From Hydrurus foetidus (taxonomy: Eukaryota): a stretch of DNA of 49,960 nucleotides. The position numbers and the translations under genes are program-made. Numbering within the stretch: position 1 is the stretch's first letter; every line of letters begins with the position of its first letter. Below, piece by piece: positions 13,160 through 49,960 of this stretch. Location of the stretch: contig UYFQ01000229.1 in the NCBI GenBank assembly GCA_900617105.1, positions 62,001-111,960 of the forward strand, given 5' to 3'. The notes under the pieces are model-generated. The model was not told where the DNA came from. It saw only the letters and a program-made list of their open reading frames with translations, and made no database searches.

Positions 13160-13171
13160 GATGACAGAAAC

Positions 13172-13182
13172 TTAAATCCAAC
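13172..13182 (-). promoter_or_regulatory. Self-complementary primer-binding site of Copia A (GTTGGATTTAA)
   Basis: Abuts the 5' LTR; exact reverse complement of the LTR 11-mer at 13245-13255. Confidence 0.75.
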
Positions 13183-13681: not shown

Positions 13682-13933
13682 CTAGAGTGGGGTGTTGATT
13701 AATGTCCGATACTGCATCAAATAAATCTAATGCAGCAGCAAATATATATGCTGCAGCAGACAATTAGATGCTACTTCCATATATACATACATCGTACGCA
13801 GTTATCATTTACAAACACTGTCATTTGAATCAACAGCTAGCCATCGACTTCTCGCATAATTTAATTCCAACACTCGTGAAATACGACCTTCGTTTCACTT
13901 CTGTTGTCCCATCAAATCAGTTGCGTCATCGTC

Positions 13934-15012: not shown

Positions 15013-18000
15013 CACGTACGAACGGATAGTTCGGTAGATTGTACTGTTGCCGCACAATGTAACTTAACACAATCATCACCAACATCCGTTCCATTCCCTT
15101 TCTGTGCCGATACCGGTTCCACACACACTTTAAGTCGAGAATCTGACGCTCCATACATAGATCAATCAGCTGATTCATTAAATGTGTTGCTTCCCAACGG
15201 GCACACTATGCAATCCATTGGCATATGTCATATTCAACTTCCACACGTGCAGCATCGTCTTGTGGCCCACATATTTTCCGATACAACAACACCTCTCTCC
15301 TGTCTATTGCACAGCTGTGCCATATGAGCTGTACAGCTCTTTTCACATCCACCGCGGTTACTATACTCTACAATCAGCTCACAGTGCTCTCCGCCGTCAA
15401 AACACCTACCACTCACTTTTGGTCGATAAGCTTCCCAGAAGAGTTCTTACGATATGATCCACCCACTGCCAATGCTGTTACCGCATTATCAACCGATGCC
15501 GCCTTCGTTCAGTTCACCCATGCTGCCCTAGGCAGCCCATCTATATCGACGCTTAGTGCCGCTGTCCGCCGCGGATATCTGCACACATATCCCCGCCTCA
15601 CTACCGCGATCTTAGCTGCTCACAAACCGCATACGATGGCAACAGCACAAGGACATCTCGATCAACATCGACAAGGTCAACACTCCACCAACGTCCCCAT
15701 CCGCACGTTCGATGTTGATGGCTCGCTCGACGACAACGTTCAGGATCCGCCCGAAAATGATGTACTCACCCCACCCAACGCATACACTCAGGTCGTTCTT
15801 GCTTCACAAACATTGCACTCAGACCTCACAGGACGATTTCCTGTCACATCGCGAAATGGTGCACAATACTTGTTTGTATCCGTTCTCGACGGTTATATTC
15901 ATACAGAAACCATGAAAACCCGACACCATACAGAGTATGTTGCTGCTTACAAACGCACACTGAATTTCTTTGCGCGCTTTGGACGGTGCCCTGCATTCCA
16001 ACGCCTTGACAACGAAACTTCAGCGCCCTTAGAAGCGTTCGCCCTGGCTAACAACATTACCATACAATATTGTCCGCCTCACACACACCGCTCGCTCAAA
16101 GCGGAACGTGCAATCCGCACACTGAAAAATCATCTTGTCGCCACACTGTGCACTGCAGACCCCGACTGCCCCCTCAATTTATGGGACGAAATGCTACCGC
16201 AAGCAGAACTATGTCTTAACCACCTCATTCCGTACTCTCCTAATGTAACCGTTTCAGCATACGCTGGTATGCATGGAGGCGCCTTCGACTTTGCCGCACA
16301 TCCGATCGCTCCTATAGGAACCCGAGTATTAATTCACGATAAACCAGCTGTACGAGCCTCATGGGCTCCGCATGGTGTTCCGGGTTATTACTTAGGCCCC
16401 GCACTTCAACACTATCGCGCATAATATCGTGTTTGGTCCACGTCAACCAACACAACGCGTGTCACGGACACCGTTGCGTGATTCCCGTATAAACTCACGG
16501 TTCCCGGACCGTCCGCCCATGACACTCTTACGAGCACCATACACAATCTTCGTATAGCTCTTCGTGACTTCGCTGCCACCACTCAAGCACTACGGCACAT
16601 GGCACAGCCAGTCTCTACACTAATAGACAACGTCACAGCTAACCTACACACAGTCGCCAATATGCATCTACCACCGTCACCCGCCGTACCCCAACCACCT
16701 CTCCTCCACATTCCTGCCGTAGAACAGAGGGTGGTCACTGAAGCATCTGACACACGTACCGGTCTCGAACAGAGACATCCTGTCAACCCACTCGTCCCCG
16801 ACGCAGGGAGAGACACTCTAATCGGCCCTAACATCCTTCTGCACGCCCCACAAAGACCATCCATCCCAGTTCCTCCGCACATTACCACGTCATCTTTTCA
16901 GCCCGCGTCCGCTAACACAGCGCTTAATCTCGATGACCGCGGTCAACCGCTCACCTATGCGTCAGCAAAATCAGGCACAAACGCACCACATTGGCAGCAT
17001 GCTGAGTCTGAAGAACTTGACCGTCTCCTAGCAACCCACACTATTCGTCCTCTTCAATACAGCGACCAACCACTTCACCGTCGGCAAGACACAACGTACT
17101 ACAGCCCACAGACAAAAGAAAAAGGAACTCCCGACGGACAGCGCACGTATCGCATTCGTGGCACTATAGGAGGAGACAGAGTTAACTACCCTGGACCCAC
17201 AACAGCGCGCACTGCTGCAATGTCGCTTGTCAAAATTCTCATACATTCAGTCATCTCAGACAACGCCCAATGGCTTACCATTGACATCAAGGATTTTTAC
17301 CTCAACACTCCCCTGCCACGGCCAGAATATCTTCGAATTCAGTCCAAGTTCCTACCTACCGACATCATAGTGAAGCACAATCTCACTCCGTATCTACGCA
17401 ACGACTCCATTCTCTTTGAAGTGAATAAAGGCATGTATGGCTTACCCCAAGCTGGACTCCTTGCCCAACAACGCCTTATCACGCGTCTCGCTAAACATGG
17501 TTATCACCAAACTAACACAGCCTGCTTATTCCGACACGGCTCCAACGGCACTGTATTTTCCTTCGTAGTCGACGACTTCGGTGTCAAATACACCACCAAG
17601 CAAGGAGCACAGCATCTCATTACCACGCTACAGACCCTTTATCCCATCACCATCGACTGGACCGGCGCTAAATATCTCGGTTTCAGCATTCAGTTTGATA
17701 GATCACAGCGCACTGTCACGCTCGCTATGCCAGGGTACATTGCCAAGACCCTTCAACGCTTTGCTCCTACACTCACCAGCGGCGCCAATTCACCAGCCAT
17801 ATACATTCCCCCCAACTATGAAGTCGGACAACAGACACCACACGTAGACACCAGCGACCCCTTGTCCGACTCTGAAACCAGCACGCTGCAAGAACTTGTT
17901 GGATCTCTTCTATACTATGCACGAGGCGTCGATGTCACGATCCTGCCTGCCGTCACTCATTTGGCTTCACTACAAACACGTCCAACACAACACGTACTTC

Positions 18001-18623
18001 AAGCTTCCCAACGCTTGCTTGCATACTGTGCCAGATATCCAAATAATGCCCTGCGTTATCACGCGTGCGACATGACATTGCACATTCAATCAGATGCATC
18101 CTATCTCTCTCGTCCCAATGCCCGATCTGTCGCTGGAGCCATTTCTATCTTTTCAACCGCTCACATTAATGGGTCTATTCATGTACTCAGCACAATTATT
18201 CCTTCCGTTGTCTCATCGGTCGCTGAAGCTGAATACGCCGCCCTCTTTATCGCCGGTCAGGAAGCAGTATCGCTCCGGAACACTTTGCATTCATTAGGAT
18301 ACTCACAAGGACAAACCGTCATTCTTTGTGATAACAAGTGCGCAGAAGACATTGCATTGGATACTATCAAACCCAAACGTACCAAGAGCATAGACATGCG
18401 GTACCACTGGATTAGAGACCGCATCCAACAGCAGCACTTCATTGTCGCTTGGCGCAAGGGCGTCGACAATCTTGCCGACTTCTTCACCAAACCTCTCCCT
18501 GTTCACGTTCATCAATCTCTTATGCCTCTCCTAGTACACACACCACCAGCTTCTCTCTCGGCCCGCAACTCCTCGTCAGCAGCCCGGGCAGCTAAATGGT
18601 CTGCCCAATTGCACAAGAAATAA
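15013..18623 (+). pseudogene. pol: Copia B pol (PR-IN-RT-RNase H), disrupted
   Basis: ADTGST protease; HSDLTG / RLDNE / AERAI integrase; GMYGLPQAG and VVDD RT; SDAS, EAE, CDN, ADFFTKP RNase H; frameshift ~15280, stops at 16422 and ~16479. Confidence 0.92.
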
Positions 18624-20529
18624 CCTCATTTGGCAAAACGCACATGCCCTGCCGACCGCCTTGTGTACATGCTTCGCCCAAGACCCGCTAAGGGCGTCCC
18701 GTTCCGACTTCACACTACACAGCGGCGGTACGGGGCATTCACCTTCCGGCCGACAACTCCTACTACCCTGCGGCCGAATCCCCTCTTACGTGTTGGAGGT
18801 TTCGAACCACGGGCCTCTCAGTTACAACTGGATCATATTAATCAGCTGCGTCAGTACGCGCTGGGAAAAAGATGACATTACAACTACCTGTTCCCACATT
18901 CACATGTTTGAGAGGGTGTGTTGATTAACGTTCGATACTGCATCAAATAAATCTAATGCAGCAGCAAATATATATGCTGCAGCAGACAATTAGATGCTAC
19001 TTCCATATATACATACATCGTACGCAGTTATCATTTACAAACACTGTCATTTGAATCAACAGCTAGCCATCGACTTCTCGCATAATTTAATTCCAACACT
19101 CGTGAAATACGACCTTCGTTTCACTCCTGTTGTCCCATCAAATCAGTTGCATCAACATGGGGAACCCTTTATTTCTTAAACTCCAATTAAGAACGCTTTT
19201 TTTCCGAAAGTTTTACGGAAATGACTCTAAAGCCGTGAAATAAAATATCGTTTAAAGGGTGAATATAGGACCCCTGAGAAGTACGAAATCGATATCCGGA
19301 ATGTGGAAAACGTCTCACACGGAATTTTTAAATACGGAAATGGCATAGTTGGGATCTGACATTTTTCAAAACTTCAATGGAACATCACAATCGACATGAG
19401 GCATTCTCTGCAGATCACACCAGATGCAGCAGCTGACCAATAAATTCCGCTGCTGTGGCTTTTCTCCAACTCTGGTTTGCAGGGGGCATTTTGCCCCCCT
19501 CCATGTTCGCTTTCTCCTCGAAAAACTTTTGAACAACTTTCTGAACAACTTTTGGTGCAATCGGCACTGTTTATTTCATAGCAGTATTCTCTTTCGCTGA
19601 GGCCATCATGATCAAAAAAGGATTCATATTCTTGGATACGGGGGAGGACAATTTTGCAACGCAGACAGATACTGATCTTTAAAACGTCAGAAAGTTGTCG
19701 GGACACGTTTGCAAATGTCGCAAAGTTGCAGCAGACAACGTTTCCTTTCCATCCTACGGGGACCGATTGAACTATCTTACGGTTAACCGGTTAGCTTTGC
19801 TTTAACGGTATCTTTTTAGCCGTCCACGACCAGATTCGGCTAGTTGCAGAATCCGTTTCACGAAAATTGGGCTAAAATCGTACATTGACTTCAATTAAGA
19901 AATGATTATTCTGACACATTTAGACCCCCTAAAACGCAGCAAAACATTTAGACAACGCAGCAAAAATTAGATAGCCTACAATATTCTAGAGTATCAGACG
20001 AGTACAGAAATGTACTCAGAAGTACCATCCGGTTGATAGTCCGTTTATTAGAATTAATCTTGGAGAGCAGTTCTTAATTAGGTCCCCCGGCGTTTAATAC
20101 GCCGGATAATCCAACCGGATACTCCATTTTGGTGGACTTCCACCTTCCACCGTGTGTACTGTGTGTCGGAATAACTTTGTGATAAGTAACCGTATAAGTT
20201 ATTACGTATGTACATTTAATGACGTTTCGTACGTCGTGTGCCACGTGGAGGTCGCTACTCCACCGATCCAAGTTCTTTTTCCACATCCAGGAACATTAAA
20301 AATGAAAGTACACCATGTTTGACTGTGCGGGACAGATCGAATTTCTCGACTGTCTCCATGAACGATGTAAGCTACGTTGCATTGTTAATTACCTTAAACA
20401 TCACACCAAACCCACTTTCGCCTTGAGCCCGGGAAAGTGATCAGAAGCCAGGTTGAAGTTGCAGAAGGAGAGCGGACCCAGGAAGGATTTAGTTGCCCAT
20501 TCAGTGGAACTAAAGCGTGGACTCCAACA

Positions 20530-20540
20530 TAATTAACAAT
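20530..20540 (+). promoter_or_regulatory. Self-complementary primer-binding site of Copia D (TAATTAACAAT)
   Basis: Abuts the 5' LTR; exact reverse complement of ATTGTTAATTA at 20381-20391. Confidence 0.8.
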
Positions 20541-25770: not shown

Positions 25771-26859
25771 GAAAACCCTGACAGAGACACGACGAGCGAG
25801 GAGCGCGGACAAGACCCAAGAGAGAAGTGCGGAGTGCAGCGATTTACCCAGTTAGGAAATTGCCTTAATTGCATTCTTATGTGTGTTACATAATTCTACT
25901 CTCATGAGGATCAGTCAGACCTTATGATACTTACATTACCCTGTGTGTAATAAATTATCTAACGTCACAACTAACACCAACCTCACCATTACCCTACTTC
26001 CCTACCCTACAAAATCATGCTATGATACACCACCTGTGCAACTCCATGTAAACGGAGTATTTTTGAACTACTGCGTTTTCACATCCACATACACCAACCC
26101 GACGACTCACGCCATAGGGGTGTGTCGGAATAACTGTGTGATAAGTAACCGTATAAGTTATTACGTATGTACATTTAATGACGTTTCGTACGTCGTGTGC
26201 CACGTGGAGGTCGCTACTCCACCGATCCAAGTTCTTTTTCCACATCCAGGAACATTAAAAATGAAAGTACACCATGTTTGACTGTGCGGGACAGATCGAA
26301 TTTCTCGACTGTCTCCATGAACGATGTAAGCTACGTTGCATTGTTAATTACCTTAAACATCACACCAAACCCACTTTCGACTTGAGCCCGGGAAAGTGAT
26401 CAGAAGCCAGGTTGAAGTTGCAGAAGGAGAGCGGACCCAGGAAGGATTTAGTTGCCCATTCAGTGGAACTAAAGCGTGGACTCCGACACTGTGTGTACTG
26501 TGTACATAACACATACCGTAAACGTAATATGTCGTGAGAATTTATCAAATAATTATTGGGATCATTCTCAGCCAGGTCCGGTTAATTAATTAATTCTCAG
26601 GAAGATTCTCACCACCCTATACTTTTAATTAATTACATTTTAGGAAGATGCAGAGATGCAAAATCCTTGTTTCGCTGTCACGTGACCTTACAGCTGTAAC
26701 TGCTTCCAACAGGATTTTTTTTGCTGACGCACTTTTAATAAATGAGAAATACATGAAATCATGAGAATTCTTCATCGATTAGGATCAGCGCATAATTAAG
26801 TTGTCAAGCGAATTACACGAATCAAATTTGAAGAAGATATCCATGAAGACGTTAACGGT

Positions 26860-27050: not shown

Positions 27051-27096
27051 AGATTCGCTTGAGTGATCAAAAATATTTTTTTCGAAATTATGAAAT

Positions 27097-27310
27097 AGAG
27101 TGTTTGCGATTTCGGGTTTTTTTCAAAAATGACTCTCAAAGTCGTCTTCTTCAAAGTCGTTTTTTACAGAAAAAAACAAAAAACGACTTCGTCGGTCAAG
27201 AGGGCCGAACTCGTTTTCTGTGGTGCCTTTTCATTTTTTGGGAAAAACGTCTTTGAAGAAGACGACTTTGAAAGGCATTTCTGAAAAAAATCCGAAATCG
27301 CAAACAATCT
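27097..27310. mobile_element. Tourist/Harbinger-like MITE
   Basis: ~65-bp imperfect TIRs AGAGTGTTTGCGATTTCGG... / ...CCGAAATCGCAAACAATCT; 3-bp TSD AAT. Confidence 0.8.
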
Positions 27311-27949
27311 AATCAAGAACAACTTAATCAAAATATTGGAGGTCTTATAATCGCTTAATGGGGGCATAATTAATCTGTTCTTCGAAACATACTCATAATC
27401 TTTATCATAATCTGAATAGCCTCTCGATATCTGACAGCCAAGAAGGATAAAAATGTAGCCAGGTCATGAGTACGCGACGTCATGACTAGAATGACATATC
27501 AAGCGTCCAAAATTTACTGCGAATCGCACGGCGGCACTGATAGAGGCTCCTTCTACCTGATTCCAATTGCTGAGACAACCAACAAAATCTTGAAGCGACA
27601 GCACCCGGATGGACAGTGATGTTAGGAAATTCCTTATTCTACTGTTGATTACTATACGTTGCTGGCAATAGGCTGTAGATTGGACAACCGATCACATACA
27701 CCGTAACATTGAAAACCATCTATTTGAATTTGCACCTTATGCGCACGCCTAGTGCACTTAAAATGTACATACTTTGGTATGCAGTCGTCAAAAAAACAAC
27801 GCTATATAGTGGTTATTGCATTAGCCTATCGCTTTGCTACTGGAGAGGTCGCGGGATCGAACTTTATGTAACTCTGAGTTTGAGTTTAGGTGGTTCAACG
27901 TCCAGAATTATTCTCAGCACTTTTTTTTCTCACTTAATTAATTCCTGTA

Positions 27950-29996: not shown

Positions 29997-32900
29997 TCAT
30001 TCAAAAGTTGTAGAAACGATCTTCACCATGGCTGTGGGGGCGGCCTCAGTGGGCTTTCTGTTGTGCTGCATGTGGGACCGCACAAGGTGATTCGCAGCTA
30101 GGGCGGCCATCAGAGAGAGCTCTCCTGCTAGCACAGCGGATCCTACAATCTGAGCGAGCTTGCGCGAGTTGTCGCCTGAAGTGCGTTGGAATGATGAAGT
30201 AGATGATGAGCAGGCGGTCATGGCAGCGCACACGGAGATTGTTGTGGGATTGGAATTGATGTTAGCAGAACATGATGAGTGTTATTAAGGTGTGAGAAGA
30301 GGGGCAGCTGCTTACCTGCCATAGCTCCTGGAGCTTTGGATGCACCCCTTACGCCGCAGATGTCGAGGCATCCGGCTTGAGCGGGGAGGTGCGTGCCTCC
30401 TCCCACGGTGCCCACTTCAATGGAAGGCATGGTGACGCTCACGTGCAGACTCTTGCCGTCCTGTGAGAGCGAAGAAAAGAAGGAGAGGAGAGGAGGGGGA
30501 ATATTCAATGAGAAAGAACGTCATTGCCGCGATTTATTTCATACGCGCTAGGGGTGATCTCCCTCACCTCAGCGTATTCCATGATGGTCATGCAGTTACT
30601 GCTTTCAACGTTCTGTGCGGGGTCTTGACCAGTGGCGAGGAACACGGCTGTCACGATGTTTGCGGCATGTGCGTTAAATCCACCGATAGATCCTGTACGA
30701 GTTTAATAATATTTGTAATGAGCGGCGACAAGAAAGGATACATTTGTCGTGGTCAATTCTGTTCAATAGGACGATTTATACAAGTGCGTCCATATCAGTT
30801 TTGAGACGCATTTGACTGACCTGCCATGGCTGAGCCGATGTGATTCTTTTGTTTGTTGGTCTCGATCATGTCATACACGCTGCTCTTCAGTACGTTCTTC
30901 ACGATCTTATCCGGTATCACGGCCTCCACCACAATGCTCTTCCCACGGCCCAAAATCCTACAGAATTCATGAAAAAATTCTATGAGTTTTGGGACTCCGC
31001 GGATTGGTTCGTGTTTGAAGGTGATGTTATCTCATTGGGTGAGAAGGAGAAAAAGAAGGAGAAAAAGTGGAAGAAAAGGAAAAGATGAAGAAAAAAAGAA
31101 TAAGTAAAGAAGGAGGTCGCACCAGTTGATTGCGGAGGGTTTCTTGTCCGTGCACATGTTGCCGCTGATCGCCACGAGCACGAGATCAGGGAATTCAAGT
31201 TCCAAGATCTCTATCGCTTTCAAACAGCCTTTGCTGACCTGTCACAGAATATGTGGATTAAAATATTGAACGCACAGGTATATTAAGCATAACACTGTAC
31301 AGTACTACACTGCATTGATTCGATCTATGTTCTCTACAATGTTGTTTTCAATCCACGCACCATATTCATTCCCATGGCATCGCCAGACATGCAGCAGAAT
31401 CGAAGGTACACATTCCTTCCCGCTATGGTGGCGTCAACGCTGTTGAGACGGCCGTAGTTCGTTGTGGAGTTGAAAGCTTCCTGCAAAGTGTAGAGAGAAG
31501 GAGGAGACGATCAATCAGAAGGGGAAATAATGGTTCTGTCATATACATATACACTTGGCAATTCGCAAGTATCATGTGCTATTATACACTCAGGTGTCGT
31601 GCTGAAGAGTCAACTTACCTCGACTTTCAAGTAGTTCTCAGGACTCTCCACCCATCTCTTCACAGCAGCTGCACGCATAGCGGAGGGCAGTCTGAGGCAA
31701 GGGGCACGGGTGATAGCGTCTTTCAAAAGTACAGAGTGGCAGCCACCAGCAGCGGATCTGAGAAGGAGTATGGGATAGTGGGGATTAGATGGATATCCAG
31801 TGCAACTTGACCTCACATGTTACATATGAAAAGCAGGGGAAGGACTCATAAAAGTGAAAAGTTGACTTACATAGCTTTGCATCCTCTGTTCGTTGATGCC
31901 ACAAGGCAGCCCTCAGTAGTCGCCATGGGAATGTAGACGGGCTGTGGTGCGTATGAGATAGGGAGTTATATTTGAGATGGAATTAGAGCTGTGAGAGTAA
32001 TTACAAATACGTAATTCTTCAGAGGCTGTCAAGCGGAACATTTGAGGTCTGATCAGTAAGTCTTAATATCTATGTGCGATTGACGCTGCTTGCTTGGGGA
32101 ATTTACTACCTCTCCATTGATCGTGAGGGGACCAACAACTCCTACGGGGATGGGCACATATCCGATCACTATCTCGCAGTTCGCTCCAAATACCTGCCGT
32201 ATCCATATCGTAGCAATCATGAGGATTAAGAAAAGGTCTTTGTCCAATTTGCAGTGGAGTTGATGCGATTTGAAACTCTCGCCCAGACCCATACACACCT
32301 TGTTGTAGTCGTATCCTGCGTAAGGAATGAGGTCAAGCTTCTTGTCTAGTAAATGCTCATAAAGTCTTCGTCTCAGACTCACTGCTCTTTCGTAATCGCC
32401 GAGCCTTTTCTCCAACTGGTAATCTTTCAAGGAACCATTGATAAGAAATTCAAATACCTCGTCGTCATTCAGTTCAGCGAAAGCGATCTCGTCGATGTCT
32501 CCGGTCTCCACCTGCGGCTGCTCGGCGCTTAATTTGCAAGCGGCATCGATGGTGGCTGGAGCTCTCTCGACACATATCGCCGTATCGTTGCGTGGAGTGT
32601 GGGAAGCAACTTTTGGTGCAGCGGCCACAGTTACGGCTTTCTGAACTTTCTTCGGCTTCTGAAGGGCTTTCTCTTCTTCGGCATTTCTTGCTGCATCTGC
32701 ATGGCGTTGGAGGTCCGATAAGCCGAAAGTTGACGGTGATTCCGAGATTGCCTCTGTGTCTAAGAATGATATGCCGAAAAAACCAAAGAAATATGCGAGG
32801 CACATTGTCCAAAGCACCATCACGGGAAAGAACATGCTCGTCAGGGGGCTAGCACTTTCGTTTTGTTGATTGATTGTTATGTTCCGTCGATAGTTAAACA

Positions 32901-33119
32901 CCACGTAGGTGATGCTGCCGATGAAAAGCGTCAGAACAACATAGTTTAGCGCTCGCAGCACTCCCCATTTCGGCTGAGGATTCTGGTAAAGTGGTAAAGG
33001 TCCGAAAGTGTCAGGATGAGACTATCTTGTATAATTGCACGACAGAAATTTTCGCCGCGCAATATCTAAACATCTTGAGAGTGCTGATTTACCGAAAGAG
33101 ATTTTCCATTGGTATGCAT
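29997..33119 (-). CDS. HMGR: Class I HMG-CoA reductase, multi-exon (possible extra last exon 29798-29939)
   Basis: [61 protein letters not shown] and GELSLMAAL motifs across GT-AG exons; two N-terminal hydrophobic segments; start exon 33093-33119 tentative. Confidence 0.95.
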
Positions 33120-34543
33120 GATTTCGGAAGTCGACAACGTCCAAATATTCCCCGATGCCCTATGCCCTAAGTTAATTGAAATCAAGTCCGATCAAGTTGA
33201 TCGAGACTGAAAGATGCGGAATTCGCTTCTTCTAGCGGCGACTTCTTATTCCCACTAGCCACTGCTTCGAAGCCTCTCCTATTAAACCTTCCTTGATTCG
33301 ATCGACCTATTACTTGTTGGTCACTTCTACGGCACTCCGTACACACAGCGAACGGCGAATTTTGAATGAATTTGTTTTCACATCCCGATCGATCTACTTC
33401 ACAGAAATTCGTTCCCCTTCAAGCGGTGACGCTGATTCGCTGATTTTTCAAATTTGGAGACCTGGGACCCCGATTTGGGTTTTTCCCTCTTTCGTCCGAG
33501 TCGATTGGTTCCAATCAGTTGAAAAGTCAGCCCCACAAATATTCCCTCGCCTCTAATATCTTGTGCTGAACTCCAACAAATATTCCCTCGCCTCTAATGT
33601 CTTGTGCTGATAACACAGCTTCACGCGAAATTTCAAATGCCGTTTTCATCATAACATCCTCGACCAGAATACTCATTTTTGGTCGGTTTTGCAAGAAATC
33701 AAGAATCTGAAGATTTCTTTTCTTACTTCAGAACTCTCAGAGCTCGCTGATTCTTATTAGACATGCACCAACCACCATCGGAAGAGAAGTTGCATTTCTT
33801 CAGTGATGGTTTCTCCAGTAGAAATTAGAAAATTCAAAATAATGTAATCAAAAATTAAAAATGACCATATTTTGGAAAGGATTCCCCACACGACAGGTAA
33901 AAAGGACCTAACGGTTTATAGGGACAGAACCATTCGCTGGAGGCTTGTTGCTGGATCGTTTTGCTGGAAAATCGGGCTGGGCTGCCTTCTATAGCCCCTT
34001 GCTTTATCCTCAACCGGTTGGTACAACTACGGAGTTGAGTCTACAAAAACTGCTACCGTCTCCGACCCTATTATTTATTGGATTTTTGGTAAACCAAATT
34101 TTTTTTGCTCTGCAAATCACGGATATCGTTTTTAAAATTTGCCACGGATTCATTTTTATCTCCCTTAATAATCAGTTTGGAGGAAAGTTAGTTGCAGATT
34201 CGGATTCAGGGCACTTTCTTAAGTGAAATAGCATACCTTAACTTTTTTTTTCACCAACGATGAACGAAAGAATGCCATCCGAAGAGGCGAAGGACGTAAC
34301 TTTGAGCACATGCAACTCCCCCATTTCTTATCCGAGGCAGAATCTAATTGGTGGAAAAGTTGCGCACAACTACTAGCTATCGATAGAACCAATGTCCGGA
34401 GATTTTTGAATGCTATTGCTTGCAGCGTTGCAATTAAACATACTAAAACATGCTAAAAATCACCATTTTTCGAACACTGAAAGTGCCGATTATGTTACAG
34501 CCGATCAATAGCCGACCTTCCAGAATTAGACAGCTGCGTCAAG

Positions 34544-36256
34544 ATGAGCGCTCGGAGATCGATGGATATGAGAAATTCCTTCAGCTCTGTCAAGAAAAAG
34601 CGTCAGCATTTGGCAAATTTAGCTGTACAATACTATCGAGATGAAGAGAAGGAACAGATGGACAATGAAAAACGTGAGGAGCTTCGCGCTGATCTAGCTG
34701 AGCGCCGTAATGAACGCAAGAGTCAAAATCGGGCGAGGAGAATCGAAGTAGCTCGATCATCGAGAGATGAAAGATCCGATGAACAGAAAGTGCAAGATGA
34801 CATTGATTCAGTTGTTGAGGATATACCTGTCGTTCCAACAATGCCCAAGAATGGCGTCAAGAGGCATAAGAGACCACCAAATTGGGGAGATATTGCCGAT
34901 GAAGCCGAAATATGGAGAAACGATGCTGCCAAGAGAAACTTCGCATCAGACTTCAACGGAGCATCTCAAACTGCCAAGTATCAGAGATTGAATCAATTGA
35001 AGAAGGATTTGAAAGACAAGAAAATTTCATCTGCTTATCAAGGTCAACCATTGTATGGGAGTGAGATCGACTTACTTCTTCTCGCTGACTGTCATGCCAG
35101 GAGGGCTGTAGGACTCCCCATTGACGACGTGATTCTTAGGCGACTGCTTATTGTTCATCTAGCTGCAGCAGGGAAAGAAGAAGAGTTGATTGAGAACGGC
35201 GGGAAGTATCACTACGGACATTCATGGGCGATGAGATTTTACAAGAAACACAAATTGGCAAGCAGAGTTTACACTACTGAAATGAGAGAACTTCCAGGGG
35301 ATTTCGAAGCCAAAAAAGCCACGTACATAATGATCGGCGCAGAGTACAACGTGCCGCCAGAATCGGTTATCAACAGAGACGAAACAACTGTTCTCCTAGT
35401 GAATCGCGCAAAAGTGACTCGCAATACAGTGGGAGCAAAACGTGTGAGGATTTTGGGCATGGGTGAAGACAAGGCTCAGATCACGATGACTATCTTCGTC
35501 ACCGAAACTGGTGATGTCCTCCCGTATCAGATGATATTCTCAGGTACTACTACAAGGTGTCACCCTAAGTCCCTTAAACCTGCCGACTGCCTGTGGACGA
35601 ATACTGCGAGTCGCTGGCAATCTGTCGAAACGTACCTGGAAGTTCTTGCTTGGGCCATTGTTCCTTACAAGAACAATATCATCAGAGCTCTAGGACTCCC
35701 AGCCAACCAAAGAACGATCCTTAAGCACGACTTACATTTTACTCATAAGGATGCCCGTGTCTCGGCTTATTTGAAGGCAAATTTCATTTGCCCACTATAC
35801 GTGCCGGCGGAATACACGGATATCATTCAGGAGTGCGATGTAGTTGTTAATAAGCCGTTCAAGAACGCTGTTCGGGGTGCTTTCAGAGACCACTTAGATA
35901 CACTGTTTCAAACACATTTGGCAGCTGGACGCCCCCCAACAGACTTTGCCCCGAAGCCTACAATGGGTACGCTCAAGCCATACCTCACAGGTTTCGTTGA
36001 GAAGGGAGTTCTAGCGCTCAAGATGCCAGAGATGAAGGCCTGCATAAGAAAATCATTCGCGAGTGACGGTTTCTTTACTGAAATGAGATCATCCGAGATG
36101 CAACTCATGGTGCAGATGGAGGGAGGGGCGACCCTTGCAGAGGAAGATCCTGACATAGAGGGGATCGAAAATGATGAAATCATTGAAGAATTAGACGCTG
36201 ATTCTGATGTCCATGCTAATGTTGAAGTTGAGGTTGATAATGACATTAATGAATAA
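34544..36256 (+). CDS. pogo/Tigger-like DDE_1 transposase
   Basis: SWAMRFYKKH CENP-B-like HTH; NRDET, KAQIT, KHDLHFTH, IQECDVVVNKPFK catalytic region; acidic tail; TIR pair not identified. Confidence 0.85.
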   Translation: MSARRSMDMRNSFSSVKKKRQHLANLAVQYYRDEEKEQMDNEKREELRADLAERRNERKSQNRARRIEVARSSRDERSDEQKVQDDIDSVVEDIPVVPTMPKNGVKRHKRPPNWGDIADEAEIWRNDAAKRNFASDFNGASQTAKYQRLNQLKKDLKDKKISSAYQGQPLYGSEIDLLLLADCHARRAVGLPIDDVILRRLLIVHLAAAGKEEELIENGGKYHYGHSWAMRFYKKHKLASRVYTTEMRELPGDFEAKKATYIMIGAEYNVPPESVINRDETTVLLVNRAKVTRNTVGAKRVRILGMGEDKAQITMTIFVTETGDVLPYQMIFSGTTTRCHPKSLKPADCLWTNTASRWQSVETYLEVLAWAIVPYKNNIIRALGLPANQRTILKHDLHFTHKDARVSAYLKANFICPLYVPAEYTDIIQECDVVVNKPFKNAVRGAFRDHLDTLFQTHLAAGRPPTDFAPKPTMGTLKPYLTGFVEKGVLALKMPEMKACIRKSFASDGFFTEMRSSEMQLMVQMEGGATLAEEDPDIEGIENDEIIEELDADSDVHANVEVEVDNDINE

Positions 36257-37238: not shown

Positions 37239-37765
37239 GATGACAACTTTTGTTGTGATGTGCACGCCAATGTCGCGCTTTGTGTATTGCGCAGCTGAAG
37301 ACAGCGAAAATTTTCCCAAAGAGATCCCAGAAAAAGTTGGATATTCGTTCCAGTGGATTTTAGAAATTTCCACTGTCTCTTTCCGTATCGAACGCTCTGC
37401 TGGATTGGTCAATCCAGTGGATTCTAAAAAGCCAGTAAAGCCTGGGGTATGTGGGGGTAATCCAGTATAAGAGGAAGCTACCGAACTGTTGTGATATCCG
37501 GATTAGACTAGGATCTTGTACCCTATGTGATGTATGATTGTTTTCATGCACGGGTGTACGTACATTCAGCGATAACATTGACCGCAACCCTCGCACTCAT
37601 GTTATGCTACCTAGATGTAATCGACAGCATGTCACTGTCGTTTAATCCAACTTACCGAATAGAACGTCTTCTTCTCTTTTGAGCGAGCGTTGCTAGCAGT
37701 CGGAAGTGCAGGGATCGTTTGGGAACTCGGAAGAAATTCCGTGTAAATCGCCCAGATTTCCAACA

Positions 37766-37776
37766 TAAACGACAGT
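37766..37776 (+). promoter_or_regulatory. Self-complementary primer-binding site of Copia E (TAAACGACAGT)
   Basis: Abuts the 5' LTR; exact reverse complement of ACTGTCGTTTA at 37634-37644. Confidence 0.85.
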
Positions 37777-37820
37777 CATCCTTAGATAGATTAGCTAGTA
37801 GTTGCAAAAGAATTGCAAGG

Positions 37821-39005
37821 ATGGGAGGACGAGGCGATGGAAGATTCCAGTCCCGTGGCGGGGGCAGGGGTCGATATGGTAGGGGGCAAGGCGAGCCCCA
37901 TAAACCCATAGTAAAAGGTAGGAAGCCCGAGGTAGGTGCTTACCTGGATTTGCCACGAGGCCAAGCGGCAGATCCGGAAGCCGTGTTGAAATGGCTTGAA
38001 TGTTTAAGAGTTTATATGTATAGTACTTACGAATCTTCCGTTAAAGAAATCATTGGAATAGATGGGGTCCTTACAGATTACGAAGAATTTGTGGAGCCAG
38101 ACGACCCGCCGGATAACGCCGGCATGGTTGCCATAGAGAGGTGGAAGACCGCAAGTAAGAAATATGCTGCTAATATTGAATTACATAAAAAAGACTGTGC
38201 AAAATTGTATGGTGTAATATTAGGTCAGATGTCGGAGGCCTCAATCACGAGGGTGAACGAGATGCCGGCAGGCAAGCGAGCCATAGAGGACTGTGATCCT
38301 CTCGAGGTGTTGACATGTGTGGTTGCTACACACATGAACAACAAAAGGTATGGAGATGTATATAATATGACTACAGCAATTAGAAACTTCTAGAATAATA
38401 AAATGTACCAAAACGAGGATCTAGCTTCATACTTTAGTAGGTGCAGGACGCTTCTGTTTGTCAAGAGCGAGTCATACAGGATCGCCGACGAAGAAGAGCC
38501 CTTCCACACAGATGAGTTTCATGCTGTATTATTTGTAACTGGACTGAGTTCAAACTATTTAGAATATATAAATACGTTTAAGAATAAGGTTCGGTCATGG
38601 CCGCAGACCATGGCCGATGCCAACCAGGACGCGGCCAACTTCCTTATGGGAAGGCCCGTCCACGGAGGAGCTCCCCCGAACTCGGAGAAGCGAAACGTTT
38701 TCGCGGCCAGTCGGGGTGGGAGAGCGGGTTCAGTCGGAAGAGGCGGCAGAGGCCGTGGCAGCGGAGATAGCGGAGCTGAGAAGGGAGGATTCGACACCCC
38801 CGGCAGCGAGAGCAGAGTGAGGGCAGGCACTCCCTATAGGGATAGGGAGGCCACCCCACAGCGAGAGAGAGGTGGTGCCGTACAGGAGTACGGTACCCGT
38901 TATGGAGCGTGCAATAACTGCGGGGAGGAGGGCCACTATGCGTACGAGTGTAAGAAGCCCCCGAGGAAGAACGCACCTGCGCGTCACACTTCCTCGGAAA
39001 AGTAA
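37821..39005 (+). pseudogene. gag: Copia E gag (in-frame TAG at 38391)
   Basis: RGG-rich N-terminus; CNNCGEEGHYAYEC zinc knuckle. Confidence 0.88.
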
Positions 39006-42000
39006 GTCCCTTATATGCTTTTTTACCTGATTCACTAGCTAAGGATGTAAATGTTCCGTGTGGGGAAACCGGACTGCATGACGTATTTGCAACGTCGACC
39101 GGTTACCCTGCGTTTGTGCCATTGTTAGATAAAGCATGCAGCTTGGAGAATTTTTGTCCACTGAACAGTAAAAATTGTGGGGGTGACCCTGTGATTTTTA
39201 GTGCGAATGTATATACACACAGTTCCACATTTACAGATAGACAAGTGTTGTTAGATACATGTGCAGCAGAGTCAGTATTTTGTAGTGGAGATTTATTTTA
39301 TAGTATTATGCCGTCCGCTACCCCGATGATTATTAATGGAGTGAACCCTCAGGGGGAACCCTTGATAATCACGGAGTGTGGCGAGACGGACTTCGGAACA
39401 GTTTACTACGATAGCAATTGTATAGCGAATATATTATCCTTCGGTAACATAGTCAGCTCGAGCGAGTCAGTTAGCTATGACAGTGACCAGGATTGTTACA
39501 AAGTTAGGATGATTAAGTTAGGACCTGTATATAGATTTGTCCATGATCAGTCTACGAACATATATCTATGCGACTTAGACAGAAATGTCAGTTACAAGAA
39601 TGTATCGTTCGATAAATCGATCATGGTCATGACAGTTAAGGATAAGAAGAAACTGTATACAGCTAGACAAGTTAAGTCAGCAGAGTTAGCTAGAGAGTAT
39701 CAGAGAAAGTTAGGTTACGCCAGCCCAGGACAGTTAATTAAATTAATAGGTCAGGGGAAATTAGATAAGAGTGACATAACAGCGCAAGATGTAGTTAGAG
39801 CATTAGATATTTTTGGACCAGATTTGGGTTCCCTTAAGGGGAAAACAACTAGTCACAAAACTGAGTTAGAGGAAGAGATGCCAGTTGTAGATAGGCAGTT
39901 CCTGAACCAGGTTATGTACATAGATTTGATGTTTGTGAACTCGATACCCTATTTAGTCACAGTTACAAATCCCTTAGAATATGTGATGATATGTAAACTC
40001 TCACGTAAAAATAAGTCTTCCCTATGGATGAACTTAGAGAGCAACATACATCACATTACTAAGTATGGATTTAAGATAACTATGATAAGAATAGACGGAG
40101 AGTCGGCAGTTAACACCTTAAGTTTTGAGAGTAAGCTAGCCGCACTAGGTATTATATTAGACAGTACTGGAGCAGGAGAAGCAGTAGCTGTAGTTGAGAG
40201 GAAGATCAGAGTGATCAAGGAACGTGTTCGTGCCATCATTAACACGGTACCTTTTTCACTGAGTGAGCTACTAGAAAGTTGGTTACTTAGATATGTTGTG
40301 AACAGATTAAATTTAGTACCAACTAGAAACAGTGTAGCTTACGTCAGCCCCAGAGAGAAATTATACGGTAGAAAGATTAACGTAGATAAGGAGTTGAAAC
40401 ACGGTTTCGGTGATTACGTACAAGTACATACCGACTCCGTGGACAACTCGACTAAACCCAGATCACAGGCAGCAATAGCATTAGTTAGTGCAGGCAACCT
40501 AGAAGGGTCATGGTATTATCTGCTGTTAGCTAACTTAAAAGTAGTAAAGAGGACAAAGGCTACTAGCCTACCAATGACAGATGATGTGATCAGTTACCTC
40601 GATAAGTTAGCATCTGAGAGGAAATTAAATATGTCAGTGAATGTCAAGCAACCTATTTTCGAACAGAGTAATCAAATCCTCGAAGACGATGGAAATGATT
40701 ACTCCAACGATGAATTTGAGTTGCAGACACCTGACATGATAACACCGTATAGTTATCCTACAGAAGACGAATTTGTGCATCATGAGATAGCAAATAATTT
40801 TGACTCATACGATGGCAATTCTGATGTAGCTTACGAATCAGAGTTCGAACAATTAACAGAATACATACCAAATGATATATACGTTAATGAAGGAGAGGAT
40901 GTAGTGTATGACGATACACCAACTGACCCCGATGCATTAATGAATGATATATTTGGTGTAGACAGTGATGATGAGGTAGATACCCCCACCACAGAAAATA
41001 GCAAGTCAGAGGAAATTCTAGATAAACAACCCAGACGTAGTGCTAGAAACCATCAGCCAGGTAGATGGAACAAGAGATTAGTAGGTTTAAGTATACCTAG
41101 CTACAAAGATTCAGTTATGTGTAAGTACATGATGAACATGACCGTAACAGAAGGAGTACAGAAATTAGGCGAGATAGCCGTAGATTCCATTAAAAAGAGT
41201 TACAACAGATGTGTGATAAGAATGTGTGGGAGGCAGTTCACCTCAACAGTCTTAGTTACGATCAGAGGAAAAGTATCATAACCAGCAGTATGTTTTTAAA
41301 AGATAAGTATACAGCAGATGGTAAATTTGATAAGCTAAAATCTAGACTTGTAGCAGGAGGTCATTTACAAGATAGAAATATATATGATAACGGTTCATCA
41401 CCAACTGTTAGCACCACTAGCGTATTTATTGTTGCTGCAATTGCTGCTAGTGAAAATCGAGCGGTCGCTACGATCGATTTTCCTGGTGCATTCCTCAACA
41501 GTGATATGCCACTAGACGGTGACCATGCAGTGCTGATGAGACTGAATAAATATTTGACTAACATATTAGTTAGCATTGACAAGTCCTATCAGAAGTATGT
41601 AAATGAGAAAGGAACAGTAGTAGTTAAGCTTAAGAAAGCATTATATGGATGCGTAGAGTCAGCTAAGTTATGGTACGATAAAATATCATCAGACTTAACA
41701 CAGTTAGGCTATAAGGTAAATCCATCAGACATATGTGTATTCAATAGGACTGAGCTAGATTCCACTCAGACTACTTTAGTTATCCATGTTGATGATATGA
41801 TGATCAGCAGTAGGGATGAGAAGCGTATAGATAGTATAATTTCAAAGATAGAAAAACTATACCCAGGCTTGACTAAGAGTAGAGGTGAAGTGTTGAATTA
41901 TATAGGTATGACTTTTAACTTTGAGCAGTTAGGCAGAGTTGTCATATCCATGGAAGGTTTCATAAAAGACTTGTTAGACGATTGCATAGAGATTGTGGAG

Positions 42001-42735
42001 GTGTCTAGAGCACCTGCCGACGATAATCTATTTAAGATCGATCTTAACAGTCCTTTATTGAAAGATAAAGAACGTGAGAGATTCCACTCACTAACAGCTA
42101 AGTTGTTATATTTAAGTAAGAGAACCAGACCAGACATACTGACATGTATAGCATATCTAACTAAAAGAGTCTTAGAACCTAGAACCGACGACTGGAATAA
42201 GTTAGCGCATACTATACGGTATATCAGAGAGACTAGAGCTATGCCGCTGACCCTAGAGGTAGATACTCCGGTTAAGGTTATAGCCTATATAGATGCATCA
42301 TACGCTGTACATGCAGATAAGAAGAGTCACACTGGCTGTATTATAACACTAGGTAAGGGAGCAATATATGGTAAGAGTTCCACTCAGAAATTAAATACTA
42401 CGTCTAGCACAGAGGCAGAACTAGTAGCTATGACTGAAGCAGGTAATCAGGTTTTATGGACTAGGAATTTCCTTATCCATCAAGAGTATGAGGTAGGTCC
42501 AGCTTTAATCTACCAAGATAACCTATCCACAATTCAGTTAGTTAAGAACGGTAGGTCCAACAGTGAAAGAACTAGACACATAGACATCAAGTTTTTCTTC
42601 CTGCATGACCGAATTAAATCAGACCATATTATTGTAACCTACAAGAGTACTAAAGAAATGATTGCAGATTTGCTGACCAAGCCACTGCAGGGGAAGCTAT
42701 TCCAAGAGCTACGTGACCAAGTGCTCAATGTATAA
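39002..42735 (+). pseudogene. pol: Copia E pol (one frameshift in an A-run ~41195)
   Basis: LLDTCAAES protease; YIDLMF / RIDGE / VERKI integrase; HVDD RT; RNase H ending ADLLTKPLQG. Confidence 0.93.
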
Positions 42736-43546
42736 AGAAATTCAGGGAGTTATTTATTGATTTTGACTTACCCACTTATAGCGCTTTTTCCAGATAAATT
42801 ACAAAATAAAAATAAAAATCTGATTTCGCTTTAAATCAACATTTGTTTGATAGGACCGCGAGGGACATCGATGCACCGCTTTTGCGACATCGAATGTCGA
42901 CGTTTTAGCGGATTTAAGGGCACCAACATCGGTTGGATCGAACTCGAGACCGGTCACCAGCTGAGGCTTTTTTGACGGTTTAGAAATAGTTTTTCTCGAG
43001 TAATACTTACCCGCTAATCCAACCACCCATGTTTTATTTTACACCATATCACGACGCAACTTGTCAATATTAAAAATTCCGTGAAAAATATTTTTAAGAA
43101 AATTTACTGTTTACCATACCCTAACACTAAGTTCCCTATCTGAGTGTTGTGTGAAACATTATGAACAATAACCAATAAGTATACTATATAAGCATATGCT
43201 AATTAACATATTCACTTATTCAAACAATAACCATCATGGGGGTGTGTTGTGATATCCGGATTAGACTAGGATCTTGTACCCTGTGTGATGTATGATTGTT
43301 TTCATGCACGGGTGTACGTACATTCAGCGATAACATTGACCGCAACCCTCGCACTCATGTTATGCTACCTAGATGTAATCGACAGCATGTCACTGTCGTT
43401 TAATCCAACTTACCGAATAGAACGTCTTCTTCTCTTTTGAGCGAGCGTTGCTAGCAGTCGGAAGTGCAGGGATCGTTTGGGAACTCGGAAGAAATTCCGT
43501 GTAAATCGCCCAGATTTCCAACACGAACGGACCCTATAATATGTTT

Positions 43547-44566: not shown

Positions 44567-44734
44567 AATATGTTTGAGTCTCTGGCAACCCCACACCCAA
44601 CACCTAACACTGCTTCCTGTTTCCTGAGCTCCCATCAGAAAAAGTTTGTTAATAGTTTGGAGCTCAATAAGGTCTGATTGAGGAGAAACCGAGGTGGCTT
44701 CGAAGACTGTTCCATATTTGCCTTCCTGTGAGCT

Positions 44735-45124
44735 ATGGGAAATCAGCAACCTGTATTCAACAGACTGGAAGTTCCGTCATTTGGCCTAGTTTGGCTGAAT
44801 GTAGATGACAGTGCAGGTGACGCCTTTGTTTTGATCCCAGGTGGTGGGGGTAGTACTAAATCAGGAGTGAAAAATCAGATTCAAATAGGGAAAGTTGTAA
44901 ACGACAAGACCGGCGGATTCGAATTCTTGAAACGCTTCGAAACTGATGTGGACGGTAAAAGTGTGCTATGCAGCGGAGTATCTGTTGGAATCTGCATGGG
45001 GAAAAAAGTTGTCTGTGCTTTTCTCGATAATCACTGTGCAATACTAACAGTGGAGAAAATTGGGAATGACTTACTGCTGGAACGAGTTGTTGATTTCAAA
45101 GCTGATTTTAGCGGACCCAAATAA
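44735..45124 (+). pseudogene. SEC12: Truncated duplicate of the SEC12 5' end
   Basis: Matches 49410-49788 up to KADFS, then runs into the MULE terminus and stops. Confidence 0.85.
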
Positions 45125-48100
45125 CGGACAGCTAAAATCTAGAAAATGCGACTATTTCTATGGAATATAACTATTTTCTGGAGTTTATCACTTTTTGGTT
45201 TTTGGCGACACTACTTTTTTTACGCCACTATAATATAAGAAACTCAACTATAAAAAACAAATTTCAACTTGAAGAAGGAATAAAAAACTTTTTTAAGCAA
45301 CACAGCTATTTCTGACAGCCACCAACTTTTTCTGCCAGAGATCACCCAATATCAGATAATTCTGCAGTTTGATTTTGAATTCATCGCGCACTACTCGTCC
45401 ATCACTAACGTGCAGAGTGCAGGCGGCAAGACTTCAATTTAACTCACGATGGATCCAGGAATTGATGTGGATGTGGTAGCGGTTAACGCAGCAGCTGAGG
45501 CTGGCCGCGGCGGAGGTCTTGATTGGACAGCTAGCTTAACATTTGACACTGGTAAGTCTTGACCATCGACTGGCATCGAGGTTGTTCTCCTCTGAAAAAA
45601 CAATTTCTCATTCACTACGCCGTGACAGTCGAACAGGTTAAAGAGTACTTAAAAGAGATGAGGCTCTCCAAATTTCGCACAAACCACAACTTTGGGGTTC
45701 GAGTTACTTACTTGCGATGTTCTGTAGCAGGATGTCCATATCGTTGTCGGCTTAAGGAGAACATCGACTACGGAGGCGACATACCCCATTTCGAATTTGA
45801 AATACTTACTGCCAGCGAGCACAATCATCAGATGGAAATTGTTCGCGAGAGGGGACTCACTCTGCAACAGAAAAATATCATTGACCTAAGTCTTGAGAGA
45901 AATCAGTCGGAACCGAAGAAGGTACTCAATTTCATGTTAATCACTCCGAATGAAGCTCAAGAGTAAATAGATTCATAACCAACTAATCTTATTTATCTTA
46001 ACTCAGGTCGTCAGAGAGTTTAATAGACTACGGCAGCTAGCAATACTGGCGAATGAAGACCCAGTTCCAACGCCAAACAAAGCTATGATATCTAGCTACA
46101 CATCATATAAAAAACTGCAGCAGCGGGGAGGCGTGCCCGTCGGCGAGCAAAGCCTCCAACACATCCTTGACTTCGCCGCGGCAGTCGAGCTGAAGCCCAC
46201 GAGCGGAGACCATGAAGCCTGCTGCATACAGTGTGTAGTTAATAGTCAGAAGATCGAAGCCTTTTTTGCGATAGTCCTATCTACGAGGAGACTACTCAGC
46301 GGATTGGACAGCTCAAGGCCGATTGAAACTGATGAAACATTCAAAGTCATTCATGAAGGATACGCGTTGACTCTCATTGGGCAAAGCGATATGAACAGAG
46401 TCTGGCATGTGAGGTAAACTGGCACTGATTTTCTATCAGATGAGATCTATCTGTCTAATCATTTACCCAATGCTCCAAATATCAGGGCCATCGGTGTGTC
46501 GACAAATTCGACACAGGAAGTCGGCGAAATTTACCTTCGAGCAATTCGGGAGCACGCCCCTGACTTTCATCCCACGGCCTACCTCGGGGACGCAGCTGAG
46601 GCATTTGCCAATGCCGCCAGCGCTGTCTTCGACTCAATTACATCAAGATTGATGTGCTTCGCCCATGTCTACAAGGTACGCAGTCGATGTGTGAAGCAAT
46701 CCTCGAACTTCGAACATCCATCCGATTTTTCAAAACATTTTTCATTTTTCGTTTTTGTTATAATTTTCATGTCATGAACTTCTTTAGGCAACGGAAAAAC
46801 ATGCAAAGAGAATTGTAGATATGCAAATAAAAGCCAACTTTATGCAAGATATAAATGCAATTTCTTATGCATGGACACCTGAGGTAGCCGTTATGTTGAA
46901 AGCTCTATTTTTTAAAAAGTGGGAAGAGCATCCTAACCCCATTGTACTTAGCGTTACGGAGCATTTCAAAACTGAATGGTGCAATGAGCGACTTGGGAAC
47001 TGGACCTCAGGACATGCGCATAACTGTGTCGTCAATACCAATGGCTTAGAAGGCACAAATAAGGTCATAAAAGATGAATTGACATACAGACAGCTTCTTC
47101 CGATCATGGATTTCCTGCAAAAAGGATTAGTGTGGGTTCGTGAGCAGTCAGAAAACAGATCAGATGGGCCTGATGGGGTTCCTAATCCAAACAAGTTGAC
47201 TTTTGCAAACAGTCACACCTTCACTACTAACGATTGGACTTCGGCTAATTCATGGAAAAATAATACTTCGAAGCAGATTCGGTTTTTGCCGCTTTTGAAT
47301 GTATACGTCGCAGTTGATGCGGGTGCCAGAGGTCATCTAACGGATGTCAAAGCTACTGCCTACGCCACAACTTTTGCGGAGTGCGCATGGGATACATTTG
47401 ATGAGTATACATCTATGTTTTTTAATGTATGCATATTACACCATGATGAAACACGTCCTGAAATGTATGACTGTACTTGCAGTGCAAATGCGAAAAAATT
47501 TACATGCGTGCACTCATTGGGAGTAGCGATGATGAGAGGAACTCTAATTCCACCGCAAGCAGCGCAAGTCCAGCTACTAGGACGGAAAAGAAAAAGAGGT
47601 CGGAAGCCACTTGCTGCTCCTGCATGGGAGCGGATGGCATTTGCGTTGGACACCCCACCACAGCACCCACAGCAGGAAGCTGCTATCCTCCTTGGACCTC
47701 ATGCTGTGATACAGCTCGATGGAGTGGGTGCCGATCTCGCTGCTGAATTTGTTTAAAGTCTATAACTAACTCTATTAGGATAGTATCTTAAAGTAGCTTT
47801 AATTCAATGAGAAGAGATCTCACTGGAGTAAATTAATCGACTTAAAAATTGCTTATGACAAAGTCACTTTAGAACAGAATGACAAAGCTGAGAGTGATTG
47901 ACAGGGTGGCCAATACAGAATACAGCTTCTCAATAAAATAGCTGTCCCTAACAGAAAATAGTGCCCTTTCCATAGAAAAAGTTACGTTATAACAGAAATA
48001 GCTGTCTTTAACAGTAATAGCTGTCTTTAACAGTAATAGCTGTTTTTAACAGAAATAGCTGTTCTTATCAGAAATAGTTGTAGTTGTTAATAAAAGTTGT

Positions 48101-49003: not shown

Positions 49004-49409
49004 GCTATATTGTGTAGTATGTAGTGCATAAACGGTGGTTGCTACGACAGTTACCTCGATATTTTTGAACCAGGATGATCGGGTCCCAGACGATTCGAGG
49101 GCAAAGCTCTTTCTCGTGGAATCGCGATTTATCGAAAAAAAATCGGTTTCAGAAATTTACCAAACACCGGATTTGAAAAATTGAGAAATTTCAAAAAAAC
49201 GGGGGAAAATCTCGTGGGATCGCGATTTTTCGATTTACCAAACGCACCCTGAGTCTCTGGCAACCCCACACCCAACACCTAACACTGCTTCCTGTTTCCT
49301 GAGCTCCCATCAGAAAAAGTTTGTTAATAGTTTGGAGCTCAATAAGGTCTGATTGAGGAGAAACCGAGGTGGCTTTGAAGACTGTTCCATATTTGCCTTC
49401 CTGTGAGCT

Positions 49410-49960
49410 ATGGGAAATCAGCAACCTGTATTCAACAGACTGGAAGTTCCGTCATTTGGCCTAGTTTGGCTGAATGTAGATGACAGTGCAGGTGACGCCT
49501 TTGTTTTGATCCCAGGTGGTGGGGGTAGTACTAAATCAGGAGTGAAAAATCAGATTCAAATAGGGAAAGTTGTAAACGACAAGACCGGCGGATTCGAATT
49601 CTTGAAACGCTTCGAAACTGATGTGGACGGTAAAAGTGTGCTATGCAGCGGAGTATCTGTTGGAATCTGCATGGGGAAAAAAGTTGTCTGTGCTTTTCTC
49701 GATAATCACTGTGCAATACTAACAGTGGAGAAAATTGGGAATGACTTACTGCTGGAACGAGTTGTTGATTTCAAAGCTGATTTTAGCGAAGATGGCTCTG
49801 TAAACTGTGCATGTATTTTACCATCTGGTCATATTGTCACTGGTGGAGACGATGGTATTTGCCGGCTTTGGGCTGTCGGTTATATCAAAGATTCGAATTC
49901 ATCTGCTCCTGCTATTTGGAGAGTAAGGATGCTAAGTATGATGGAGGGTCATACAGCCGC
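49410..49960 (+). CDS. SEC12: SEC12/PREB-like WD40 Sar1 guanine-nucleotide exchange factor, 5' part (runs off window)
   Basis: GGGGSTKSGVKN K-loop motif; WD40 repeat IVTGGDDGICRLW...EGH. Confidence 0.8.
   Translation, partial: MGNQQPVFNRLEVPSFGLVWLNVDDSAGDAFVLIPGGGGSTKSGVKNQIQIGKVVNDKTGGFEFLKRFETDVDGKSVLCSGVSVGICMGKKVVCAFLDNHCAILTVEKIGNDLLLERVVDFKADFSEDGSVNCACILPSGHIVTGGDDGICRLWAVGYIKDSNSSAPAIWRVRMLSMMEGHTA

Follow-up and report, generated by a model that had tools for sequence, protein, structure and literature searches.

How does a Copia retrotransposon prime reverse transcription when its primer-binding site (PBS) lacks the signature of a tRNA? In the retrotransposon Tf1, the RNA's initial 11 bases form pairs with the PBS, and RNase H cleaves between bases 11 and 12 (as described in the accessible text of PMC7175516). 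A comparable arrangement is seen at element E, one of four Copia-type elements with near-identical LTRs (A, B, C and E) in the window, the whole stretch of 49,960 nt that was analysed.

Anatomy and state of element E

Element E is a young, recently inserted Copia element, flanked by a 5-bp target-site duplication (CGAAC, at 37482-37486 and 43524-43528). Its domain order (gag-PR-INT-RT-RH), RVT_2-type reverse transcriptase (RT), TG...CA LTRs and 5-bp duplication are those of Ty1/copia elements. Its parts are as follows.

37487-43523, + strand: element E, Copia LTR retrotransposon
37487-37765, + strand: 5' LTR, 279 bp, TG...CA, one mismatch to the 3' LTR
37766-37776, + strand: PBS, flush with the LTR end, without the TGG tRNA signature
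37777-37823, + strand: leader, with a predicted 7-bp stem (37777-37783/37817-37823; minimum free energy (MFE) and centroid structures) over the gag ATG at 37821
37821-39005, + strand: gag with CCHC zinc knuckle (Pfam zf-CCHC) and an in-frame stop at 38391-38393
38954-41281, + strand: pol, first frame, protease and integrase, assigned from motifs, without a Pfam match
41194-42735, + strand: pol, second frame, RT and RNase H (Pfam RVT_2, E 2.6e-22)
43238-43244, + strand: polypurine tract, ending GGGTG and adjoining the 3' LTR
43245-43523, + strand: 3' LTR

The copy itself is damaged or mis-assembled, since close homologs run through both of its interruptions. P0121, a gag homolog with 98% identity, reads through the position of the stop at 38391-38393, and the pol homologs P0393 and P0410 each join in one protein the two frames that are broken in E between the integrase and RT parts (near 41194-41281). 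Because of the gag stop and the pol frame break, E would be mobile only with the proteins of an intact copy.

The stop at the end of gag seems to be conserved, as P0134 and P0150 finish alike, and pol overlaps gag in the -1 frame (38954-39005). In several relatives from G002 (a bin with many eukaryotic repeats), one long ORF is present. The GGGTG end of the polypurine tract directly before the TGT of the LTR (43238-43249) is common to the clade of E and C and to the distant A/B family; by eye, it was also seen in A, B, C, L003 and L016-L021. Neither TATA-like nor AATAAA motifs were found in the LTR of E.

Sequencing runs containing E come mostly from freshwater, biofilm, sediment and glacier samples, and a stramenopile alga is the probable host. 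Its closest relatives are metagenomic proteins, and the only named eukaryotic matches are to a diatom (Cyclotella cf. meneghiniana, 29% identity). In their motifs, E is reminiscent of CoDi6 and element B of CoDiI.

Pairing of the LTR with the primer-binding site

The PBS of E complements a segment of its own LTR, a pattern expected of Tf1-type self-priming.

37634-37644, + strand: predicted self-primer of E (predicted first 11 nt of the RNA), complementary to 37766-37776
37632-37636, + strand: initiator-like TCACT, the only YCAYT or TCAHW in the E LTR

Read as its reverse complement, the segment ACTGTCGTTTA (37634-37644) is identical to 37766-37776. There is no spacer, as the LTR ends at 37765 and the PBS starts at 37766. 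The match consists of 11 Watson-Crick pairs; the next pair would be C/C, and there is no G-U extension. A sequence-only reading of this locus had claimed pairing over exactly 11 bp, beginning at the A of TCACT in a YCAYT context and giving an R+U5 of 132 nt for a start at 37634, and the complement, the context and the length were all confirmed. TGG is absent from the first 8 nt after the LTR, 37400-37900 contains no Rfam match, and the site does not resemble the half-tRNA-iMet site. The window itself holds no tRNA.

That such a match arises by chance is extremely improbable for E alone: when its LTR was shuffled 20000 times with dinucleotides kept, just 12 shuffles reached at least 11 bp, with offsets of 0-5 allowed.

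The same geometry in other elements

The flush match recurs in seven other elements. All eight testable elements, three from the window and five fetched, match their own LTR at offset 0 over 9-14 bp, with differing letters; a length of 11 bp is therefore not a rule of the lineage. The other two elements in the window are C and A.

20164-20529 and 26123-26488, + strand: LTRs of element C
20381-20391, + strand: predicted self-primer of element C, 11 bp with 20530-20540
20530-20540, + strand: PBS of element C
13477-13183, - strand: 5' LTR of element A
13245-13255, - strand: core of the predicted self-primer of element A, 11 bp, or 14 bp with one G-U
13172-13182, - strand: PBS of element A

Elements C and E have RTs that are 66% identical and gag proteins that are about 29% identical. 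Their primers differ at four of 11 positions, and each change is present on both sides of the duplex. By entropy the 11-mer of E is, as had been proposed, the most complex of the three (1.86 bits, versus 1.32 and 1.54). For the odds of a chance match, proposed to be lowest for E, this makes little difference: the shuffle counts were 12 for E, 20 for C and 10 for A (each of 20000), and by this measure E is not the rarest.

The five fetched elements came from two sources. A metagenome scan gave two loci, of which one was testable (L003, with a gag 29% identical and a match of 14 bp). G002 gave eight clade contigs among 40 fetched, four of them testable (L020, 14 bp; L022, 10 bp; L019 and L021, 9 bp each). 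The match test left out element B of the window, in which the LTR end and PBS are missing, L001 and L004, in which the contig stops within the LTR, and also L002/L023, L016, L017 and L018, for which no junction of LTR and PBS came with sufficient LTR sequence. No relative turned up in four scans of viral contigs or in a phage search. A search of 401 genomes gave one further bin, with distant Copia RTs, and a search with the polypurine tract-LTR pattern gave 12 matches versus 13 for its control, with seven new loci that are not LTRs.

Three control Copia elements from the same bin but outside the clade matched their own LTRs over only 4-5 bp, with LTR limits placed by eye. Their sites presumably are of the tRNA type, judging from motifs. 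In 56 cross-family tests of a PBS against the LTR of another family, 53 gave no more than 7 bp and the longest matches were one of 9 and one of 8 bp. In a quick RT-RNase H tree of 21 rows, built without named references and with truncated RTs padded with upstream residues in the rows of L022 and L023, the six self-matching elements with RT sequence form one clade (SH-aLRT 99); the three controls and element B lie outside it.

Taken individually, some matches are modest. The shuffle counts were 0-3 of 3000 for five of the testable elements and 24-49 of 3000 for three, the latter being relatives with AT-rich matches of 9-10 bp, which is what can be said for chance complementarity. It is effectively refuted by the LTR shuffles and the eight-element comparison, in which every match lies at offset 0 while controls and cross-family tests are negative.

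Tf1-like self-priming of E and its relatives is likely, given that an own-LTR match is present in 8/8 testable elements and the 3/3 controls reach only 4-5 bp. Of the Tf1-type priming that had been proposed for E from its letters, the self-priming is thus supported by comparison (8/8 elements versus 0/3 controls), and the start at 37634 stays a prediction.

Two side observations concern the fetched sequences. In L021 (G002:C69), the LTR also contains the primer motif of L019 (G002:C367), 9 nt long, immediately downstream of the L021 primer; the start may have shifted here, with turnover of the primer. Genomes filed as prokaryotic hold eukaryotic retrotransposon contigs: G002, and also G001:C41 and G038. 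With 71 RT matches, G002 appears to be largely a mis-binned collection of repeats.

The predicted start of the RNA

Where the RNA of E would start was approached through the initiator-like motif and the edge of the pairing. The motif is common: in the window, YCAYT has a density of 5.3 per kb on the + strand and TCAHW one of 8.7 per kb on each strand; the chance of finding YC before a primer starting with ACT is about 0.12. Across elements, the pairing edge falls on a C-A junction in 4/8 (0.56 expected, P about 0.001) and, with E excluded, in 3/7 (P about 0.009), in a test that was picked after the data had been seen. A C-A junction lies within 0-5 nt of the pairing edge in 8/8 elements, and in 4/8 the perfect match starts elsewhere than at the junction. 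The broader test for a Y-R edge was not significant (4/8 versus 2.2 expected, P 0.15).

TCACT of E fits the initiator-like motif TCAH+1W proposed for a diatom, which is present in 67.9% of 80-base upstream regions according to PMC4686930; that motif places +1 at 37635. The oomycete motif YCAYTYY (PMC3599244) is not matched by TCACT. A transcription start at 37634 is plausible, and somewhat favoured, as a prediction from these sequence features.

Self-priming could also proceed from an RNA that starts a few bases further upstream, likeliest at the C-A junction at 37628/37629, with a primer of about 16 nt whose 5' end is unpaired or loose.

37629, + strand: alternative predicted start, at a C-A junction 5 nt upstream, with extra bases unpaired in the minimum-energy duplex

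In five relatives the distance from the nearest C-A junction is 14-16 nt (A, 16; L003, 14; L020, 15; L019, 14; L022, 15), in three of the five the junction precedes the perfect core by exactly 5 nt, which is also the case in E, and in E three further pairs could form across a 2-nt bulge. Those extra pairs are, however, absent from the minimum-energy duplex (-14.2 versus -13.7 kcal/mol, from a dangle only), the only nearby C-A junction of the sister element C sits at the edge of its 11-bp match, and the TCA context of 37634 is missing at 37629. An upstream start is rather unlikely on this evidence.

Variant sequences are weak evidence here and do not separate the two starts. The available sequence runs are contigs, in which the two LTRs of E are merged. 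Listed differences between variant contigs cluster at 37596-37622, and among those listed none falls at 37623-37684, a pattern that is biased by contig ends. One diverged contig, at a weak depth of 3.7, has a change in the first base after the PBS and, among listed changes, none inside the PBS. Another contig offers weak evidence of a change of 37644 to G, which would leave a G-U pair. Some contigs from RNA-labelled libraries cover U3, and they speak neither for nor against the predicted start at 37634.

RNA folding

Folding in silico is compatible with the pairing. In an RNA of 37634-37830, the 11-bp helix is present in both the MFE and centroid structures (z -1.97); in a slightly longer RNA of 203 nt, the probability of primer:PBS pairing is only 0.47. 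Further predicted structures of this region are listed below.

37622-37640, + strand: predicted 6-bp hairpin (37622-37627/37635-37640) spanning the predicted U3/R border, in the MFE structures of RNAs starting at -14, -20 and -40
37719-37763, + strand: possible U5 end stem, a predicted duplex (37719-37725 with 37757-37763) with one G-U

In RNAs with an upstream start, the probability of primer:PBS pairing is 0.54 at -14, 0.08 at -20, 0.63 at -40 and 0.91-0.93 at -80 and -147. According to these models, the hairpin at the U3/R border would mask the primer in RNAs starting 14-40 nt upstream and would not do so at -80 or -147.

The pretzel of Tf1, in which U5 pairs with the flanks on both sides of the PBS, can be drawn for E, yet it is not above chance (24/150 shuffles equally good), and nor is the U5 end stem of E (38/150). 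The pretzel helices are likewise not above chance in C (29/150 shuffles) and L003 (68/150). Only in element A does the pretzel exceed chance (1/150), driven by a U5 hairpin.

The helix might instead have a structural role, as a long-range contact within an RNA starting far upstream, serving packaging, translation or a U5-leader stem, with priming by a host RNA or some other route. That it still forms in silico for starts 80 or 147 nt upstream is in keeping with this explanation, as are the lack of support for the pretzel and the fungal GalEa Copia elements, which have a non-tRNA hairpin at the same position with no known mechanism (accessible text of PMC5445492). Against it, the 3' arm starts exactly at the LTR end in 8/8 elements, and this position determines the starting point of minus-strand synthesis; the letters vary between families with no common tRNA-like motif; and the 5' edge is enriched for C-A junctions. 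A purely structural role is thus quite improbable, and self-priming is the preferred reading.

Elements A and B: a second lineage?

Element B (13693-19157) has lost the site in question: compared with its 3' LTR and with its relative A, its 5' LTR lacks the last bases and the PBS (around 13925-13935). The LTRs are otherwise 98% identical and are flanked by a TGGGG target-site duplication. That so young a copy has no primer site points to a deletion since it inserted, or to a slip in the assembly. About 13815-13835, the LTR of B resembles 37634-37650 of E although the LTRs are otherwise unrelated, which may be chance.

Element A (3376-13477, - strand) is 10 kb long, with LTRs that are 99% identical and a TATTG duplication. 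Of the B family it keeps only the start of gag (50% identical to B) and the end of RNase H (86% identical); about 9 kb of other ORFs, with protease-like motifs and a weak CCCH finger, lie between its LTRs. A is thus a derivative of the B family and is possibly non-autonomous and cargo-carrying. Since A derives from the B family and the RT of B is only 24% identical to that of E, A hints at a second self-matching lineage.

The remainder of the window holds other repeats and gene fragments. Between the retrotransposons are an ORF resembling DDE_1 transposases, an exon of an HMG-CoA reductase and MITE-like palindromes, long and imperfect. A 539-bp direct repeat (99.8%), without TG...CA ends, looks like a duplicated piece of a host gene. 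The ORF between its two copies, which has no Pfam match, is presumably transposase-like.

34481-36256: DDE_1-like ORF
32053-33021: HMG-CoA reductase exon
27096-27311 and 2860-3181: palindromes
44575-45113 and 49250-49788: 539-bp direct repeat
46788-47756: presumably transposase-like ORF

Proposed mechanism and its meaning

From its sequence and by analogy with Tf1, E likely uses its own RNA's 5' end to prime reverse transcription; this RNA is predicted to start at 37634 or 37635. As in Tf1, the 5' end of the RNA would fold back over the 132-nt R-U5 and pair with 37766-37776. The RNase H of E's RT would then cut after base 11 (37644/37645), and extension of the primer from its freed 3' end would yield a strong-stop cDNA some 121 nt long. 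We infer that plus-strand synthesis would copy the attached primer into a new PBS. If so, primer and PBS would evolve in step, and the 5' end of the RNA would lie at the border of the perfect match.

A broader picture can be offered tentatively: two distant Copia lineages (E/C and A/B) in one freshwater protist may both self-prime without a pretzel, with a C-A junction setting a primer of 9-16 nt and with primer and PBS rewritten together in each cycle. If this is true, tRNA-free priming would be widespread, and possibly old, in algal Copia elements rather than a yeast oddity. As the primer site tracks the LTR while its letters change, these elements would be a clean system for asking whether an RNA-RNA duplex is a substrate for the RNase H of a Copia element, and the E lineage also suits the question of whether a pretzel is needed for self-priming. 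The self-primer match would predict transcription starts from DNA alone, and self-priming would explain why PBS finders based on tRNAs miss such elements.

Comparison with known systems

Experimental proof of self-priming concerns only the gypsy-type Tf1, as far as the accessible parts of the surveyed literature report, and for Copia elements it is a prediction. Tf1 is an established case of self-priming, which has also been proposed for the Tf1/sushi group (PMC10085805, PMC4600332 and PMC7175516, in their accessible text), and the available part of PMC3601003 mentions it only as a hypothetical ancestral state. A literature search, with most subscription journals outside its reach, found no report of self-priming in algal Copia.

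Among Copia elements, the plant TAR lineage (Houba, Osr-1) offers a parallel. Self-priming was predicted in silico for 89% of 203 TAR elements, by a match of at least 10 bp starting 0-5 bp after the LTR (PMC6317226 and its Additional file 5, as far as accessible). E is similarly a Copia element for which self-priming is predicted by the same in silico criterion. TAR elements have been described from green plants and mostly have one ORF (from the same accessible text), whereas E has gag and pol in separate frames and relatives from aquatic metagenomes.

Diatom CoDi6 families have CCHC zinc fingers in gag, as does E (accessible text of PMC2806351). No descriptions of CoDi primer-binding sites were found in the main text of PMC2806351 or in the accessible parts of PMC8147415 and PMC2774666. 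Fungal GalEa elements are, like E, Copia elements without a tRNA PBS; unlike in E, their site has its partner downstream of the LTR, and a complement inside the LTR was not found by the authors (PMC5445492, in the part available).

The closest parallel in mechanism is with Tf1 and Tf2 of Schizosaccharomyces pombe, in which an 11-nt segment of the LTR complements the PBS just after the 5' LTR and no tRNA primer is used (from the accessible descriptions). The pretzel of three duplexes sets Tf1 apart, as it is not above chance in E, and start and cleavage are demonstrated in Tf1 and predicted from sequence in E. Tf1/sushi elements are Ty3/gypsy chromoviruses with the order RT-RH-INT and a chromodomain, whereas E has the Copia order and an RVT_2 RT. 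E therefore appears to work like Tf1 and is, by its domains, not a member of the Tf1/sushi group.
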